DNA of 64,000 nt from an uncultured delta proteobacterium (lineage in GTDB: Bacteria > Desulfobacterota > RBG-13-43-22). Below the pieces are notes generated by a model that worked only from the letters and a program-made list of their open reading frames with translations, made no database searches and was not told where the DNA came from. The stretch lies in assembly GCA_963843145.1 (NCBI GenBank), contig CAWJJC010000028.1:224001-288000 (forward strand), written 5' to 3'. Position numbers and translations under genes: made by a program. Shown here one piece after another: positions 18,742 through 64,000 of the stretch. Numbering within the stretch: position 1 is the first letter of the stretch; each line of letters begins with the position of its first letter.

Positions 18742-18931
18742 AAATCCGAAATCCGAAATCCGAAATCCGAAACAAATTCAAATGAACGAAATCCGAAATT
18801 CAAAACCATCTGCCCCGGAAGCACAACAATCCCCCCAAGGGAGAGGATGTAAAGTTTACCCCGTCCCGGACGGGGAGGAGAATTCGTTTCGGTCATTTGG
18901 GTTTTGGACATTGCCGTTTGTTTCGAATTTT
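18742..18931. repeat. Empty pair of inverted AAATCCG-heptamer arms
   Basis: (AAATCCG)x4 AAACAAATTCAAAT on the left and GTTTCGGTCATTTG...TTTGTTTCGAATTTT on the right, with no gene between. Confidence 0.8.
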
Positions 18932-22092: not shown

Positions 22093-22189
22093 GGAAGTGG
22101 AAAGCTCACTGGTGGGGCTCCCGGACTTCAAATCCGGTGTGCCGTCTGAGAGGGCGGCAGGTGGGTTCGATTCCCATGCACTTCCGCCA
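22093..22189 (+). tRNA. selC: tRNA-Sec (anticodon UCA)
   Basis: GGAAGTG/CACTTCC acceptor stem, CCGGA-CTTCAAA-TCCGG anticodon arm, long variable arm TGCCGTC/GGCGGCA, GGTTCGATTCC T arm, encoded CCA; 97 nt. Confidence 0.95.
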
Positions 22190-47806: not shown

Positions 47807-47837
47807 GGATAGGACCTCTTGAATTCTGAGATAGGGT

Positions 47838-47884
47838 TATTTGAATTTGTTACGAATTTAGTGTTTCGAATTTCGGATTTGAAT
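47838..47884 (-). repeat. Solo AAATCCG-heptamer arm between the ADH and AOR genes
   Basis: Minus strand reads TTCAAATCCGAAATTCGAAACACTAAATTCGTAACAAATTCAAAT. Confidence 0.75.
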
Positions 47885-56276: not shown

Positions 56277-58160
56277 ATGTTCAAGAAAAAGAAGGCCGCA
56301 GCGGATAAAAAAACGCCGTTGGATAAAAAGACTACCGAATTGCTGGGATTGATTTTTGAAAAAATGCCCCGCAGGATTGAACTTTTGCTTTTTACCAGCC
56401 CCGGTCGGAACGAGCCCTATAGCGCGGCGATTCGGGAGTTTTTCCGATCGGTCGGTGATTTGACCGACAAGATCGATTTCAGGGAATACGATTTGACCCA
56501 CGAACTGGCCGCCGTCCACGAGGCGCAGGAATCGCCTACCCTGGTGATAGACCCGAGCCATATGCGCCTCCGCTGGCTGGGGGCCCCTGTCGGCCAAGAG
56601 GCCGCGGCATTTTTGACGGGCCTGGTCATGATCGGTCACCGCAAGGCCAATCTGGAAACACAATCCCGGAAGATACTCAATAGTATAGAGGAACCTCGCC
56701 GGATAAAGATATTTGTCAGCCCGACCTGTCCTTATTGCCCCCAGCAGATCATGAACGCCCTCAAAGCGGCCGTGGAGCGCCCCGATCTCATTTCCCTGGA
56801 GATTATCGATGTCCCGGCCATGGCCGAATTAGCCGAAAAATACCAGGCCTTCAGTACGCCCACCGTTTATGCCAATGAAAAACGGATCGCCCGGGGGGCC
56901 CAATCCGAAGAACTGTTCATGGCCAGTCTGAAGAAGCTGGAAGAAGAGACCATCTTCATTCCGGACAACGAAGCCGAAGAGATCGAAGTGGATCTGGTGG
57001 TGGTCGGTGCCGGTCCGGCCGGCCTCTCGGCCGGGATCTATGCCGCCCGCAGCGGATTACGGGCGGTAGTCGTCGAAAAAGGTGTCCTGGGGGGACAGGT
57101 GGCCATGACCCCGATAGTCGAAAATTACCCCGGTATTCCTCAGATAGGCGGCAAGGCCCTGGTGGACATCATGGTCGTTCATGCCCTGGAGTATGCCAAC
57201 GTTTTTCCAGGGGAAGAGGTCATGGAAATTAAACCGGGCCAGCCCCTGGTGGTGACTACCAGCCGCCGACGCTTTCTGACCCGGGCCGTTTTGTTGGCCA
57301 GCGGCGCTGTGTATCGACGGTTGGGGGTCCCCGGCGAAGAGCGCTTGTTCGGGCGGGGGGTCAGCTATTGCAGTACCTGCGACGGACCGCTGTTCAAGAA
57401 GGGCAAGGCGCTCATGGTGGGCGGAGGGGACAGCGCCGTCACCGAGGCCTTGCATCTGCATCAGATCGGGGTCGAGGTAACCCTGGCCCACCGGCGGGAG
57501 ACCCTGCGGGCGCAGGCCCAACTGAAGGACAGCCTCAAGGCGGCCAAGATCCCGGTCCTTTTCAATACCGAAATTCAGGAGATCAGGGGTGAGGAGCGGG
57601 TCAAAGAGGTGGAGCTGGTCAATAACCTCAGCGGAACAAGGCAGGTGATGGCCGTGGACGCAGTCTTCGTGTCCATAGGCTATGCCCCGGCGGTGGAGTT
57701 GGCGCGTCGGACCGGAGTAGCCCTCACCGAGGACGGGTATATCAAAAAGGACTCCCGCCACCGCACCAACATCCCGGGGATTTATTCGGCCGGGGATGTG
57801 GAGGGCGGCTATAAACAGATCGTCATCGCCGCCGGTCAGGGATCCGAGGCCGCCTTAGCAATTTTCGAGGATTTGGTCAATCCCTATTGGGTTTCTAATC
57901 AGAATCGGGCAAGGGTCTCGAGGCCTGAGCGCGGGGGACACCACGTCAGGCTTGTAGACCCGGAAGCGGGGGGACAGAGGCAATGCTCGGAGACCCCCAG
58001 GCTAAGAAATCACCAGGTACCATCCACCAATTGGCGTTTTTCTTCCAGATATTCTTCCAGTTCATCCAACTTCAGGTGGAGAAAGTCCTGGATCGATAAT
58101 ATACTTATCCATGGGTCCCGGAAGGGTTTTCGACGGGGCGCTCTCTTAATTCCTTTTTGA
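56277..58160 (+). CDS. Thioredoxin reductase (TrxB) with N-terminal AhpF-like thioredoxin domains; aberrant C-terminal extension
   Basis: CPYC in the thioredoxin fold, GAGPAG, ENYPG, GVSYCSTCDG, GGGDSA, AGD. Reductase-like sequence ends near NPYW (about 57890). Confidence 0.85.
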   Translation: MFKKKKAAADKKTPLDKKTTELLGLIFEKMPRRIELLLFTSPGRNEPYSAAIREFFRSVGDLTDKIDFREYDLTHELAAVHEAQESPTLVIDPSHMRLRWLGAPVGQEAAAFLTGLVMIGHRKANLETQSRKILNSIEEPRRIKIFVSPTCPYCPQQIMNALKAAVERPDLISLEIIDVPAMAELAEKYQAFSTPTVYANEKRIARGAQSEELFMASLKKLEEETIFIPDNEAEEIEVDLVVVGAGPAGLSAGIYAARSGLRAVVVEKGVLGGQVAMTPIVENYPGIPQIGGKALVDIMVVHALEYANVFPGEEVMEIKPGQPLVVTTSRRRFLTRAVLLASGAVYRRLGVPGEERLFGRGVSYCSTCDGPLFKKGKALMVGGGDSAVTEALHLHQIGVEVTLAHRRETLRAQAQLKDSLKAAKIPVLFNTEIQEIRGEERVKEVELVNNLSGTRQVMAVDAVFVSIGYAPAVELARRTGVALTEDGYIKKDSRHRTNIPGIYSAGDVEGGYKQIVIAAGQGSEAALAIFEDLVNPYWVSNQNRARVSRPERGGHHVRLVDPEAGGQRQCSETPRLRNHQVPSTNWRFSSRYSSSSSNFRWRKSWIDNILIHGSRKGFRRGALLIPF

Positions 58161-59640
58161 TCACCTTGCCTCCGGGATTCCGGGGCAACTCCGGCAAGAA
58201 GAGCACCCGGGCCGGTACCTTGAAATCGGCCAGGTGCTGTCGGCAATATTCCAGGATCTCCTCGACCGTGGCTTCCGTCTCCGGCCGCAGGACAACGCAG
58301 GCCCGGACCACTTCCCCAAAGATGGGATGCGCTTCCGGAACCACCGCGGACTCCAGGACCTGGGGGTGGGAGTTCAGGACCGATTCCACCTCGATAGAGT
58401 AAATGTTTTCCCCTCCCCGGACGATCATATCCTTCATCCGATCCACGATAAAGACATAGCCTTCGTCATCGATGCGGGCCACATCGCCGGTGTGCAGCCA
58501 GCCTTCCTTCAGGGCCTTCTGCGTCGCCTCCGGTTGGTTAAAATAGCCTTTGACGATGTTGGGTCCTTTGATGAGTAATTCTCCCGGATCTCCCGGTTGG
58601 ACTTCGTTCCCCAAGACATCCATTGCTTTTATTTGGACCCCGGGAACCGGCAAACCCACCGAGGGGGCCTTGCGGATGGCGTCGCAGGCGGGCAGGACGG
58701 TGGTTAGCGAAGAGGATTCGGTCAGGCCGTAGGCGTTAAAAAGTTCCAGGCCCAATCTGTTTTTCAAGGCCAAAATGGTTTCCTTATCCATAGGGGCCCC
58801 GCCGTAGGCCGCCAGGCGCAGGGAGTGCAGATCCCTATCCGCCAGGGCTTCGTTGATCAGCATCAGGACATACATGGTGGGAACATTGAACAAAACGGTG
58901 ATCTGATGGCGTTCAATGGCCTGGATCATCTCGATCGTCTTGTAGGCCTTCAGGATCACGCAGGTTCCGCCCAGGTAGATAAAGGCCACCAACTGGCTGT
59001 TTAACCCGGTGACGTGAAAAAGAGGGACCACGATCAGGGTGATGTCCTTCTCGGTGTAGGTGAGCATGGCTCCGCAATTTCGGGCGTTGGTGAAGATATT
59101 ACGTTGGGTCATCATGGCCCCTTTGGGCAGGCCGGTGGTGCCGGAGGTGTACATGATGGTGGCTACGTCTTCGGGGTTCAAATCCGGAAAAATGGGTAAG
59201 TCCGAGGCTTCCAGGAGATCGTTAAAAAAAAGGGCCCCCGATTTTCGTTCCGTTCCGGCATAAATGAATTCCTTGACCCGCGATAAATCCGGTCGAATCG
59301 CCTGGGAAACATCCCAGAATTGGTAACCCACTACCAGAACCCCGGCTCCGCAGTCATTCAAGATATAAACCAGATCTTTCCCGGTCAAACGGTTATTAAG
59401 CGGCACGGCTATGGCCCCGATAGCGGCGCAGGCATAGTAGGACACGGCCATTTCAATGCAGTTCGGAAAGAGCAGGGCCACCCGGTCCCCTTTCCGGACT
59501 CCCAGCTTTTGCAGATGGTAGGCCAGAGATAACACCTGTCGTTGCAGTTCCCTATAAGTCAGGGCTTCCTCGTCGCAGAGCAGGGCGGGTTTGTTGGGGA
59601 GGCGATCGGCAGTGGCCTGAAGCATTTGGTAGATAAGCAT
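58105..59640 (-). CDS. AMP-dependent acyl-CoA synthetase (long-chain fatty acid--CoA ligase family)
   Basis: YTSGTTGLPKG, PLFH, AYGLTE, LHTGD, DRMKDMIVRGGEN, LPRNPGGK. Confidence 0.93.
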   Translation of the reverse strand: MLIYQMLQATADRLPNKPALLCDEEALTYRELQRQVLSLAYHLQKLGVRKGDRVALLFPNCIEMAVSYYACAAIGAIAVPLNNRLTGKDLVYILNDCGAGVLVVGYQFWDVSQAIRPDLSRVKEFIYAGTERKSGALFFNDLLEASDLPIFPDLNPEDVATIMYTSGTTGLPKGAMMTQRNIFTNARNCGAMLTYTEKDITLIVVPLFHVTGLNSQLVAFIYLGGTCVILKAYKTIEMIQAIERHQITVLFNVPTMYVLMLINEALADRDLHSLRLAAYGGAPMDKETILALKNRLGLELFNAYGLTESSSLTTVLPACDAIRKAPSVGLPVPGVQIKAMDVLGNEVQPGDPGELLIKGPNIVKGYFNQPEATQKALKEGWLHTGDVARIDDEGYVFIVDRMKDMIVRGGENIYSIEVESVLNSHPQVLESAVVPEAHPIFGEVVRACVVLRPETEATVEEILEYCRQHLADFKVPARVLFLPELPRNPGGKVIKKELRERPVENPSGTHG

Positions 59641-59658
59641 AAAATCTCCACTTAAGCT

Positions 59659-59740
59659 AAATTCGAAACTCGAAATTCGAAATCCGAAACAAATTCAAAT
59701 GTTCGAAATCTCGAATGATCAAAACAGAAAATTCAAAAAT
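59659..59740 (+). repeat. Left AAATTCG/AAATCCG heptamer arm of the four-helix-bundle cassette
   Basis: AAATTCGAAACTCGAAATTCGAAATCCGAAACAAATTCAAATG. Confidence 0.85.
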
Positions 59741-59754
59741 CCACAGTCCAGGAA

Positions 59755-60120
59755 TTATTCACATTTGCGGATGATGGAACCGAAAATGTTCATTAGTTCG
59801 GTTGTTTCATCGATCAGGTCTATTCGTTCTTTCTCTCGGTCTGGATTTTCATTGATTTCAATGAGCCTCAACCAATAGCGGCTTTCTTTGGCTTCTTTAC
59901 GACAGATTTTGACTCTCAAGATGAAGTCTTTTTTGCTCAAAGACTCATTGGCTTCAATATAATTTGCTCCGATGGATCCGGAGGATTTGATAAGTTGTTT
60001 TCCATCTTCGATATTGGCTAACGTTTTCGGTAGTTCTTTTACGAATTTCCGCACGCGCTTAGCGAAAAGAAAGGTTCGATCCTCGAGGTCGAATTGTTTT
60101 GAGTTTTGATATTCGGTCAT
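59755..60120 (-). CDS. Four helix bundle protein (TIGR02436 / 23S rRNA IVS-like family)
   Basis: DLEDRT..FA, QLIKSSGSIGANYIEAN...SKKDF..RVKICRKEAKESRYWL; AT-rich. Confidence 0.92.
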   Translation of the reverse strand: MTEYQNSKQFDLEDRTFLFAKRVRKFVKELPKTLANIEDGKQLIKSSGSIGANYIEANESLSKKDFILRVKICRKEAKESRYWLRLIEINENPDREKERIDLIDETTELMNIFGSIIRKCE

Positions 60121-60161
60121 TGTAATTTGTTTCGAATTTCGGGTTTCGAATTTCGAATTTT
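60096..60161 (-). repeat. Right (inverted) heptamer arm, containing the start of the four-helix-bundle gene
   Basis: Minus strand reads AAAATTCGAAATTCGAAACCCGAAATTCGAAACAAATTACA-ATG-ACCGAATATCAAAAC. Confidence 0.85.
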
Positions 60162-60165
60162 CGGC

Positions 60166-60930
60166 CTACCAGGCCGTCCACCCTCCATCCACAAAGATGG
60201 TCTGTCCGGTGATGAAATCCGAGGCCTTCGAGGCCAGGAAGATCACGGTCCCTTCCAGTTCTTCCGGTTGTCCCCAGCGGCCCATGGGAGTTCGCTCGTT
60301 GATAAAGCGGAACCTTTCCGGATCGTTCCGTAAGGCAGCCACCAGAGGGGTCTCAAAATACGTGGGTCCGATGGCGTTCACCTGGATGCCGTGCCGGGCC
60401 CATTCCAGGGCCATGACTTTGGTCATCTGAATCACCCCGCCCTTGCTGGAGGCGTAGGGCAACTGGTTTTCCAGGCCCACAGCCCCTAAGATGGAGGCCA
60501 TGTTGATGATCTTGCCTTTCCTTTGTTTGATCATGGCCGGGGCTACGGCCTGGGCCACCAGGAAATAGCCTTTCAGGTTGGTATCCAAAACCTGGTCCCA
60601 GTCGGCTTCGGTCAGCTCCAGCACCGGTTTGCGGATATTGACTCCGGCATTGTTGACCAGGATATCGATTCGGTCAAAGGCGGATAAGACTTCTTCCACC
60701 GCCTGGGTGACGCTGCGCTGATCCAGCACATCCAGGGGAAAGATCCGGGCCTGGACTCCATAGACCTGTGCCAGGGCACGCGTCTTTTCCAGGTCATCCA
60801 GATTCCGGGCGCAGAGGGCCAGATCGGCCCCGGCCTTGGCCAGTCCGACCGCCAGGGCCTGCCCCAGTCCTTTGGAGGCCCCGGTAACCAGGGCCACTTT
60901 TCCGGTCAAATCAAAAAGATCTAACGCCAT
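60166..60930 (-). CDS. Short-chain dehydrogenase/reductase (KduD/gluconate 5-dehydrogenase-like)
   Basis: TGASKGLG, NNAG, YASSKGG, NAIGP, ITGQTIFVDGG; SD GGAGG before ATG 60930. Confidence 0.92.
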   Translation of the reverse strand: MALDLFDLTGKVALVTGASKGLGQALAVGLAKAGADLALCARNLDDLEKTRALAQVYGVQARIFPLDVLDQRSVTQAVEEVLSAFDRIDILVNNAGVNIRKPVLELTEADWDQVLDTNLKGYFLVAQAVAPAMIKQRKGKIINMASILGAVGLENQLPYASSKGGVIQMTKVMALEWARHGIQVNAIGPTYFETPLVAALRNDPERFRFINERTPMGRWGQPEELEGTVIFLASKASDFITGQTIFVDGGWTAW

Positions 60931-61059
60931 GCTGCTTCTTACCTCCTTTTGTAGTAACCCCTCCTGTCCGAGGGGACACCCCGAAGCTTGAAAATAAAAG
61001 GAACATAAGCCACACTGACTGACATTAATAATTAGTCCTTTTGATGTTAGCTGCAATCG

Positions 61060-61340
61060 TGGGCACAACCAGGGACAGAGTCTATTGCGATTGAATGCTG
61101 CCTTCCGAGAACGTCCTGGAATAGCCTGATCGGGTCGATCACCGAGTGCATATCGATATCGACACGACGGTGGAGACTGTCTATGGGGCTATTGAAGGAG
61201 CCCGAAAAGGCCATAATACTCAACACCGGGGCGAGAAGGGACTGCGGCCGGTTTTACTTTTCTGTAGGAGACCCGTGAGTATCTGGCCGTGACTTTCCGT
61301 CGTGGGGAAACGATTTCCTTCGAATTAGCTCGTTTTATTT
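61060..61340 (+). mobile_element. IS1380-family transposase remnant
   Basis: My translation across frameshifts: VHIDIDTTVETVYGAIEGARKGHNTQHRGEKGLRPVLLF...ETREYLA.TFRRGETIS. Confidence 0.7.
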
Positions 61341-62553: not shown

Positions 62554-63852
62554 ATGACTAAAGAACAGATGGATCGGCGGCATTTTCTTAAAATGGTGGG
62601 AAGCGGGGCTTTGGTGGCGGGGGCCGGCGCCTTGGGGTCCGGGGTGATGATCCCCACGGGCCTTTGGGCTCAGACACCTAAAATCAAGGGGCCCCTCAAG
62701 GTCGGCTATCAGGCGGTCTTGTCGGGGACCCTGGCCGGCTATGGGGAGTTCCACAAAATGGGCGCTCAGATGGCGGTGGAGGAAATCAACCAGAAGGGCG
62801 GCATCGCCGGCGTCAAGGTGGAAATGGAGTTTCGGGATTCCACCCTCAAACCGGACGACGCGATTAAAAATGCCCGTTACTTCGTCGACAGTTGGGGCGC
62901 CGATTATCTGGCGGGGATCGATTCCTCCGGGCAGGCCTTGGCCCTGGCCCCGTTGATGGATAAATTAGACCGGGTTCTAATGGTCACCCACGCGGCCACG
63001 GAAAAATTAACCGAGGAGTGGGTTTTTAAGAAAGGGATCAAACAGATTTTTCGGATAGTCACCCCCACTTATCAGGACGGCAACGCCGCGGCCTTCATCG
63101 CCAAGGACCTGCCGGCTATGAAATGGGCCACGGTCAGTCCCAAATACGAATATGGATTCACCTGCTGGAAGATGTTTCAGGAAACACTGAAAAAGCTCAA
63201 GCCGGGCGTTTCCTTTGTCGGTGAGTCCTGGGCGCCTTTTGGCACTACGGATTTCCGTTCCCATATCAACACCATCATGGACGCCAAACCGGACGGTCTG
63301 TATTCCACCGAGTGGGCCGGTGAATTGATCACCTTCGTGAAACAGGCCAAGCAGGCCGGTCTCTTTGAAAAAATCAAATACGTCATGTTTCCGGTAGGCG
63401 CGGCCATGGATGTCCTGGAAGGGTTGGGCCAGGAGATGCCGGACAATGTCTGGATCTCCGGTCGCTATTTCTTCCTCTACCCGAACAATAAAGGCAACAA
63501 CGACTGGGTGGCCGCTTTCCGCAAGCGCTGGAACCACTATCCGGCCTATGTATCCGAATCCGGGTATTCCGCGATTTATGCCTTCAAGGCGGCCGTGGAA
63601 AAGGCGGGCTCCAAGGAGACCAAGGCCCTGATCCAGGTCCTGGAGGGGATGGGACTGGACACCCCGGCCGGCCATCGGGTATTCCGTAAGGAAGATCACC
63701 AGGCCATGTATGACGTCCCCTGGGGAAAGACCAAGGGTGACCCGAAATACCCCTTTAAAATCATGGGCGAGCAGAAGCTCATTCCGGCCAAGGTCTGCTT
63801 CAATCGTCCTCCTTTCGAGGGAGCGGGGAGCGAACCGCCGTTCAGCAGTTAA
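62554..63852 (+). CDS. Tat-exported LivK-type ABC transporter substrate-binding protein
   Basis: DRRHFLK twin-arginine signal, LKVG...LSG...YG, EINQKGGI. Confidence 0.9.
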   Translation: MTKEQMDRRHFLKMVGSGALVAGAGALGSGVMIPTGLWAQTPKIKGPLKVGYQAVLSGTLAGYGEFHKMGAQMAVEEINQKGGIAGVKVEMEFRDSTLKPDDAIKNARYFVDSWGADYLAGIDSSGQALALAPLMDKLDRVLMVTHAATEKLTEEWVFKKGIKQIFRIVTPTYQDGNAAAFIAKDLPAMKWATVSPKYEYGFTCWKMFQETLKKLKPGVSFVGESWAPFGTTDFRSHINTIMDAKPDGLYSTEWAGELITFVKQAKQAGLFEKIKYVMFPVGAAMDVLEGLGQEMPDNVWISGRYFFLYPNNKGNNDWVAAFRKRWNHYPAYVSESGYSAIYAFKAAVEKAGSKETKALIQVLEGMGLDTPAGHRVFRKEDHQAMYDVPWGKTKGDPKYPFKIMGEQKLIPAKVCFNRPPFEGAGSEPPFSS

Positions 63853-63928: not shown

Positions 63929-64000
63929 AAATCCGAAATTCGAAGCACGAAATCCGAAACAAGCACGAATTTTCAAAATCCAAATGATCCAAACAAATCG
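63929..64000 (+). repeat. AAATCCG-heptamer arm at the window edge
   Basis: AAATCCGAAATTCGAAGCACGAAATCCGAAACAAGCACGAA. Confidence 0.8.

Follow-up and report, generated by a model that had tools for sequence, protein, structure and literature searches.

Intervening sequences (IVS) that interrupt rRNA genes and carry an open reading frame (ORF) have been known since the 1990s; we know of no established function for the encoded protein, nor of an established way in which these elements move. Here we describe an element of similar design that sits between two protein-coding genes of an uncultured delta proteobacterium. It occupies positions 59658-60161 (minus strand) of a stretch of 64,000 nt, referred to below as the window (contig CAWJJC010000028.1, positions 224,001 to 288,000; in locus labels the contig is C28 and the genome is G000), and consists of a gene for a small four-helix-bundle protein enclosed by inverted arrays of 7-nt repeats. 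We judge it probable, at roughly 60%, that we are dealing with a palindromic cassette that is selfish and horizontally transferred, has the design of the ORF-bearing 23S rRNA IVS, is placed in the spacer of a protein operon and is accompanied by derivatives similar to miniature inverted-repeat transposable elements (MITEs).

The closest described system is the IVS of Coxiella burnetii. According to the available text of PMC4990558, it is a selfish element of 428 nt, located in helix 45 of 23S rRNA and bounded by a terminal stem of 28 bp that is a substrate of RNase III in vitro. Its S23p ORF is seemingly decaying, and upstream of this ORF are tandem GACAGAT heptamers whose number varies between strains. 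A Leptospira IVS is cited in the same text as an ORF-bearing relative. Within what that text covers, the window element shares with the ORF-bearing 23S rRNA IVS a size of about 0.43-0.5 kb, a single PF05635 ORF inside stem-forming terminal inverted repeats, tandem heptamers directly before the ORF (here four CGAAAYY units), decay of the ORF and a sporadic distribution suggesting horizontal transfer. Unlike them, it lies between protein-coding genes instead of in helix 25 or 45 of 23S rRNA, its heptamer arrays are inverted on both sides, and it is accompanied by 118 gene-less copies; cutting by RNase III is in this case a prediction by analogy.

Genes of the same family, wedged among unrelated genes or located in rRNA genes, have been described before. 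The available part of PMC3936711 reports 18 of them within cas loci (between cmr3 and cmr2, for instance) and considers that they may be CRISPR-associated, and that of PMC11270868 places the family in rRNA insertions of bacteria of the candidate phyla radiation (CPR). In contrast to the present case, neither account mentions flanking heptamer arms or gene-less copies in the portions available. The literature searched, with subscription journals and supplements outside its scope, contains in the texts at hand no description of heptamer-armed cassettes outside rRNA or of gene-less copies.

Small palindromic intergenic repeats include MITEs, repetitive extragenic palindromic (REP) sequences and the bacterial interspersed mosaic elements (BIMEs), Correia elements and the repeat units of pneumococcus (RUP). 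The family described here resembles all of these in being short, AT-rich and multi-copy, with terminal inverted repeats, an intergenic and often intra-operon location and strain-variable presence. It differs from them in that its long form encodes a 121-aa four-helix-bundle protein and no transposase, and in that its arms are made of tandem 7-nt units. Unlike in the REPtron arrangement, where REP sequences go with REP-associated tyrosine transposases (RAYTs), no RAYT or Y1 gene is linked to the repeats here or flanked by them. The cyanobacterial short tandemly repeated repetitive (STRR) heptamer repeats, whose function is not known, are likewise tandem 7-nt intergenic units; they are found in another taxon and use other heptamer words.

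A four-helix-bundle gene enclosed by inverted heptamer arms

The whole element, arm, gene and arm, measures 504 nt, as delimited by the heptamer runs, by two nhmmer half-hits (C28:283659-283730 and 284071-284160) and by the predicted fold. It starts 4 nt past the stop codon (60166-60168) of the upstream host gene, a short-chain dehydrogenase (SDR; 60166-61068, minus strand), and ends 17 nt ahead of the start codon (59638-59640) of the downstream host gene, an AMP-dependent ligase (58105-59640, minus strand), the GGAG ribosome-binding site of which is untouched. The gene inside the element (59755-60120, minus strand) encodes a 121-aa protein of the TIGR02436 / PF05635 family, S23p type. An earlier reading of this DNA, made from its letters without database searches (the sequence-only reading), had placed a four-helix-bundle gene between SDR and ligase genes, and this is borne out by the family matches and the annotation of the neighbours; the unit lies in an operon spacer and leaves both neighbours undisrupted. 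For the strand of this gene, no promoter-like site was found in the window and no Shine-Dalgarno-like sequence was seen by eye.

The gene-proximal arm (60095-60161, minus strand) contains four CGAAAYY heptamers ending, as the sequence-only reading had stated, in CGAAACAAATT; the ATG and codons 1-9 come next and form pairs with the distal arm. The gene-distal arm (59658-59730, minus strand) is an inverted copy located 3' of the stop codon of the gene. The CGAAAYY runs cover 59658-59697 and, inverted, 60124-60161, and the arms are about 65 nt long. That one arm supplies the ATG and the first codons had also been noticed before; in the best local inverted-repeat alignment, 66 nt are matched and the ATG (60118-60120) is spanned as far as codon 9. 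The pattern TTCGAAAYYCGAAA, with at most two mismatches allowed, occurs 19 times in the window versus 3.39 times expected, and 19 was reached in 0 of 100 shuffles. The fold predicted for the full element has a basal stem around the gene, with a minimum free energy of -139.1 kcal/mol (z -4.0), and that predicted for a gene-less copy has -68.5 kcal/mol (z -11.2), consistent with the earlier view that the arms are able to form a long stem.

The 121-aa protein matches TIGR02436 with an E-value of 2e-20 (73 bits, cut-off 24) and PF05635 (23S_rRNA_IVP) with 4.3e-13 (49.9 bits, cut-off 33.8). Its AlphaFold2 model consists of four helices with a pLDDT of 92.7, and the confidence of the arm-encoded residues 1-8 is below 50. 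The top Foldseek matches of this model are 2RLD (TM 0.71-0.79) and 2GSC, followed in rank by Avd (4DWL; TM 0.68/0.74, E 0.049) and the Avd chains of the diversity-generating retroelement (DGR) ribonucleoprotein 8UB7. Searching the sequence against solved structures retrieved only 2RLD (2.4e-12). Between the copies of the gene that are intact at the SDR-ligase site in G000 and in a related genome, G007, the proportions of nonsynonymous and synonymous differences are 0.139 (pN) and 0.84 (pS), indicating that the protein is under purifying selection where intact. In codons 2-10, protein entropy is 1.74 versus 1.04 in the rest of the gene, third-position entropy is 1.17 versus 1.50, and only two codons are conserved. 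The lower third-position variation weakly suggests a constraint on the nucleic acid in the arm-encoded codons.

The same gene and arms across bacterial phyla

The unit is found far beyond the host genome. The 80 best homologues of the window protein (61-77% identity), chosen by homology to that protein, are distributed over at least 12 phyla. The labels of their host metagenome-assembled genomes include Pirellulales, Phycisphaerae and Brocadia (Planctomycetota), many CPR lineages, Deltaproteobacteria/Thermodesulfobacteriota, Chlorobiaceae (Chlorobiota), Gammaproteobacteria (Pseudomonadota), Chloroflexota, Verrucomicrobiota, Bacteroidota and others. Two or more CKAARNN heptamers upstream of the gene together with their complement downstream are present at 54 of the 78 testable loci; at 17 loci one side alone has them, and at 7 neither side does. 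In control windows displaced by 500 nt, the corresponding figures are 0 of 74 for both sides and 9 of 74 for one side. The junction ...CGAAACAAATTCAA-ATG-ACC... is preserved near letter-for-letter across phyla. The copy of a sister genus (74% identity) is no closer to the window protein than copies of Pirellulales (75%) or Nealsonbacteria (77%).

The arms come in two dialects, CGAAA (42 loci) and CTAAA (20 loci), with three loci being mixed. On a protein tree of 48 rows, from which the arm-encoded residues were left out, the dialect changes four times, versus 15 times on average, and never fewer than 10, with shuffled labels. Since the dialect follows the protein tree and each dialect occurs in many phyla, these comparisons show that the gene and its arms stay together as a unit through inheritance and transfer, whatever the host phylogeny. 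The gene is co-oriented with its upstream neighbour at 60 of 63 loci and with its downstream neighbour at 52 of 60. Such a sense orientation behind a host gene fits a dependence on host read-through transcription.

Gene-less copies of the element in the genome

A strict regular expression finds 166 arms in the genome, which form 53 convergent pairs with a commonest inner distance of 71 nt. The inner segment exceeds 222 nt in just one of these 53 pairs, that of the window. An nhmmer profile of 139 positions, made from 22 complete gene-less copies, gives 246 matches, which group into 135 clusters, 52 of them spanning nearly the full model, and finally into 119 loci. The genome-wide catalogue of arms that had been proposed as a check of the sequence-only reading thus holds a single locus with a gene within the arms, the one of the window, and about 118 gene-less loci.

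The gene-less form, about 113-140 nt long, is almost perfectly palindromic, and its two ends can be told apart. Because both ends align to the respective ends of the full element and one of them retains an ATG and about eight codons resembling the start of the gene, the short form looks like an internal-deletion derivative of the gene-bearing element.

Three further members of the family are found in the window, at the sites where the sequence-only reading had also seen arms. The copy at 18742-18930 (plus strand), which had been taken for an empty pair, is not a plain one: it is gene-less, carries a GC-rich apical insert of 69 nt and has a degenerate, shortened second arm. What had been called a solo arm near 47838 is indeed a half copy (47812-47880, minus strand), consisting of one arm and subterminal sequence between two minus-strand genes. 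The arm at the window edge (63929-64000, minus strand; downstream of a 444-aa ORF ending at 63852) represents the first 72 nt of a complete gene-less copy of 137 nt (C28:287929-288065), which ends at window position 64065; another cargo gene, suggested as something to look for past 64000, is not there.

The loci are intergenic in 116 of 119 cases, mostly within tens of nucleotides of a start or stop codon. By spacer class, as determined with a crude gene caller (4599 genes), 87 lie in co-directional, 17 in convergent and 12 in divergent spacers, two fall within an ORF call and one is at a contig edge. In co-directional spacers, complete gene-less copies are found in sense and antisense orientation in equal numbers (17 and 17). 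The rule that the A-rich strand follows a stop codon and the T-rich strand precedes a start codon, as proposed in the sequence-only reading, is not an orientation bias: it holds automatically for any palindrome.

The number of these copies, their small size, their terminal inverted repeats and their intergenic location are what would be expected if they were ordinary MITEs of a DDE or Y1 transposon that are moved in trans, with the four-helix-bundle gene being a passenger. The genome has 10 Y1_Tnp genes, and T...A flanks, read by eye in about 70% of 22 copies, are compatible with a TA duplication, or else are part of the repeat. However, the sole long form found in the genome encodes the four-helix-bundle protein and no transposase, and there is no Y1_Tnp gene less than 5 kb from any copy (the element nearest to each lies 5.1-113 kb away). 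The arms accompany the gene across phyla, at 54 of 78 loci on both sides, and neither the strong sense bias nor the purifying selection of the gene would be needed by a passenger. We therefore consider this origin unlikely.

The sequence-only reading had further proposed a candidate cassette system, which can be taken to mean that fixed arms serve as recombination or excision sites and let different cargos enter and leave, in an integron-like manner. It is true that the same arms occur with the gene at one locus, with apical inserts of 57-151 nt at 16 or more loci, and with neither. Yet the 16 inserts examined hardly look like exchanged cargo, as 10 are unique within the genome, two match just each other and four correspond to short repeats elsewhere in the genome. 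An Rfam search with 18 longer copies and one plain copy returned nothing above threshold; microRNA-precursor matches far below it reflect the shape of a long hairpin. Within the genome no other gene was found between such arms, and the 80 cross-phylum loci, chosen by protein homology, carry one arm family. Whereas an integron gene cassette has a single attC site and variable cargo, here the cargo gene has an arm at either side and is the same one from phylum to phylum. No linked recombinase was found, no search being aimed at integrases. Exchange of cargo between fixed arms is thus very improbable; what moves is the gene with its arms.

Mobility through RNA offers another route, in which a reverse transcriptase of the host or of a phage, brought in by the Avd-like protein, would copy the hairpin RNA into DNA. 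The modelled fold is similar to that of Avd (4DWL, 8UB7 chains), which sits with RNA and a reverse transcriptase in the DGR ribonucleoprotein; there are four RVT_1 genes in the genome, and the sense orientation of the gene behind host genes fits an RNA intermediate. Weak Foldseek E-values to Avd argue against it, as do the gene-less copies with their lack of orientation bias. Unlike in the case of Avd, to which the protein has no significant sequence match, no reverse transcriptase gene is adjacent, the distance from any copy to an RVT_1 gene being at least 27 kb, and no pair of template and variable repeats turned up, such repeats not having been sought separately. This route appears quite improbable.

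In three copies of the arm family (C28:731490-731755, C9:15473-15704 and C22:461160-461316) a heptamer arm itself contains one and the same nested insert of about 25 nt (CGACYCGGCT...GCAGGC), which resembles a very small secondary insertion element.

Decay and turnover at orthologous sites

Six genomes, belonging to three genera, have the element at the SDR-ligase junction. Two of the six (G000 and G007) have an intact gene, and in the other four it is broken, by one frameshift in G003, at least three frameshifts in G002, deletions at both ends in G001 and a 3' deletion in G005. In G015, which represents a fourth genus, the SDR-ligase spacer is about 50 nt long and lacks the element. Comparison of filled and empty alleles, another of the checks suggested earlier, thus reveals filled, decayed and element-free states at one site, showing that the gene decays at a fixed chromosomal position.

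Gene-less copies differ between the same relatives. One copy in the cob operon is present in G000 and G003 and absent from G001 and G002, and G007 has a 28-nt mini-hairpin in its place. At two other cob-operon spacers and two spacers of contig C27, the relatives, whose flanking genes are 93-97% identical, hold hairpins of other heptamers or other small repeats, and one compared spacer has an insert in three relatives and none in G000. These comparisons show that gene-less copies are gained, lost or replaced between close relatives, and the spacers behave as hot spots of small-element replacement.

This turnover bears on the proposal that the hairpins are host-beneficial operon punctuation, namely, mRNA stabilisers or processing sites similar to REP/BIME that are kept by selection, with the gene-bearing copy being incidental. 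In favour of such a role are the very stable predicted stems and the location of the 116 intergenic loci, most of them within tens of nucleotides of a stop or start codon. However, the orthologous spacers of near relatives contain unrelated hairpins or none, and the co-directional share of the loci (73%) matches that of all spacers in the genome (76%). There is also no compensation within copies: among the 40 complete copies, 91.4% of cells are paired versus 91.7% with shuffled partners, and compensatory cells number 8 versus a shuffle mean of 16.6. By this test, the gene-less copies are shown to drift neutrally, without selection on structure. Punctuation that benefits the host is, in our opinion, a rather unlikely explanation, and a selfish cassette with derivatives remains the preferred one.

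Several additional observations were made. At C20:153874-154079, the frame of the upstream cob-operon gene, judged by eye, seems to extend for about 30 codons within the arm of a gene-less copy; G001 lacks the element there, and its two genes overlap by ATGA. Orthologous spacers in G001, G002, G003 and G007 carry GCGCAAA, GGAGTAA, CAATTAA and CGAACAT hairpins, and G002 also has a G/C-run repeat with CCCCC...GGGGG blocks. A repeat of about 320 bp (C20:42673-42996) is present in G000 and missing from the orthologous site of G002, where the flanking alignments abut with an overlap of 8 nt. It has more than 25 copies of 81-94% identity elsewhere in G002 and several in G001, and looks like a different, recently active small mobile element.

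Paralogues and other heptamer words

The genome contains 17 TIGR02436 matches, of which 13 concern short genes or gene fragments. The inverted repeats that flank 11 of these 13 exceed the 95th percentile of 300 control genes, and an inverted-repeat score of at least 40 is reached by eight of them versus two of the 300 controls. The best period of the arms is 7 nt in eight of the 13. The two short paralogues that fail the inverted-repeat test are shortened genes with only one arm left. The heptamer word varies among the paralogues (CGAACAT, GATGACR, CAATTAA and GGGGTAG types) and is common only to closely related pairs. The CGAACAT arms at C28:508950-509450 are another arm family of this genome.

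Four frames of 204-240 aa (C29:16758, C16:5217, C28:474993 and C27:146307) match TIGR02436 weakly through their N-terminal part (E 2e-7 to 1e-5) and are not flanked by heptamer arms; they seem to form a distinct subfamily of longer proteins. At C2:35234-35560, a weak four-helix-bundle remnant (E 1.2e-3) with its own GTACGAG-type arms adjoins a CGAAAYY half arm, so that one cassette may be nested in another or abut it. Three TIGR02436 matches occur within 10 kb at C19:73775-83582, one truncated and one with an in-frame TGA, and their heptamer words are all different.

The 23S rRNA gene (C22:352849-355871) has no inverted repeat of 16 nt or more and no element inside. In the same rRNA operon, an AAAGCTG-type heptamer hairpin lies about 75-150 nt upstream of the 23S gene and a CGAAAYY half copy about 900 nt downstream. 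The only match in the window at the Rfam gathering score is a selenocysteine tRNA gene (22093-22185, plus strand; RF01852, 75.1 bits).

Discussion

If the element is a selfish cassette built like the rRNA IVS, it would land in transcribed spacers and owe its own transcription to read-through from the host operon. The stem formed by its arms would measure 45 bp or more, and RNase III could cut it, by analogy with the Coxiella IVS in vitro; the flanking cistrons would be parted by the cut with little polarity. The stem probably renders the element harmless to the operon. An IVS-like hairpin inside the mRNA is the leading candidate mechanism, the stem being a predicted one. The Avd-like protein, with its start codon inside this stem, probably acts on its own heptamer arms, which it would bind as RNA or DNA, and may thereby promote copying or persistence of the cassette. 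The gene-less copies would be non-autonomous derivatives, which spread or persist in the manner of MITEs.

Several points weigh against such a cassette. The median identity of the 40 complete gene-less copies is 84%, and a recent burst of these copies is thus not evident. No further cognate copy above 46% identity was found in G001, G002, G003 and G005, whose genomes are 77-94% complete; with the only cognate gene found there being broken and gene-less copies being numerous, the copies are old, or else they spread without requiring the protein. The agreement between arm dialect and protein tree is expected from co-inheritance alone and says nothing of binding. At the SDR-ligase site, the pS of the gene between G000 and G007 (0.84) is higher than that of the neighbouring SDR gene (0.48), and therefore the two copies may not be simple orthologues. 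The cob-operon site with presence and absence has a 25-nt flank that is unique in the genome, and gain and loss are not distinguishable there. As for target-site duplication, the spacers of G000 compared with those of G001, G002, G003 and G007 gave replacements or ambiguous junctions and no clean empty site.

A more specific proposal, which we put forward tentatively and regard as doubtful, is that the proteins of this family are sequence-specific readers of 7-nt arrays and cause the hairpin cassette that encodes them to be copied, without having a recognisable nuclease, recombinase or polymerase of their own. If it were true, such 7-nt readers would be a new class of mobile element, and the match between protein subfamily and heptamer word would reflect recognition, beyond co-inheritance. 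Insertions of such cassettes would explain the rRNA IVS with an ORF, the stray 23S_rRNA_IVP genes in operons, such as those in cas loci, and many intergenic heptamer arrays. Binding, cutting by RNase III and mobility of the cassette are all open to concrete experiment.

For annotation, the present results call for caution, in that genes of this family, for example those in cas loci, are not to be read as functional members of the operons in which they are found. They also suggest that at least part of the 7-nt-repeat hairpins between genes, here and in the relatives, originate from such elements. With a unit of gene and heptamer arms located in ordinary operon spacers across phyla, and about 118 gene-less copies in a single genome, the rRNA IVS would represent one of the insertion sites used by a broad family of mobile elements.

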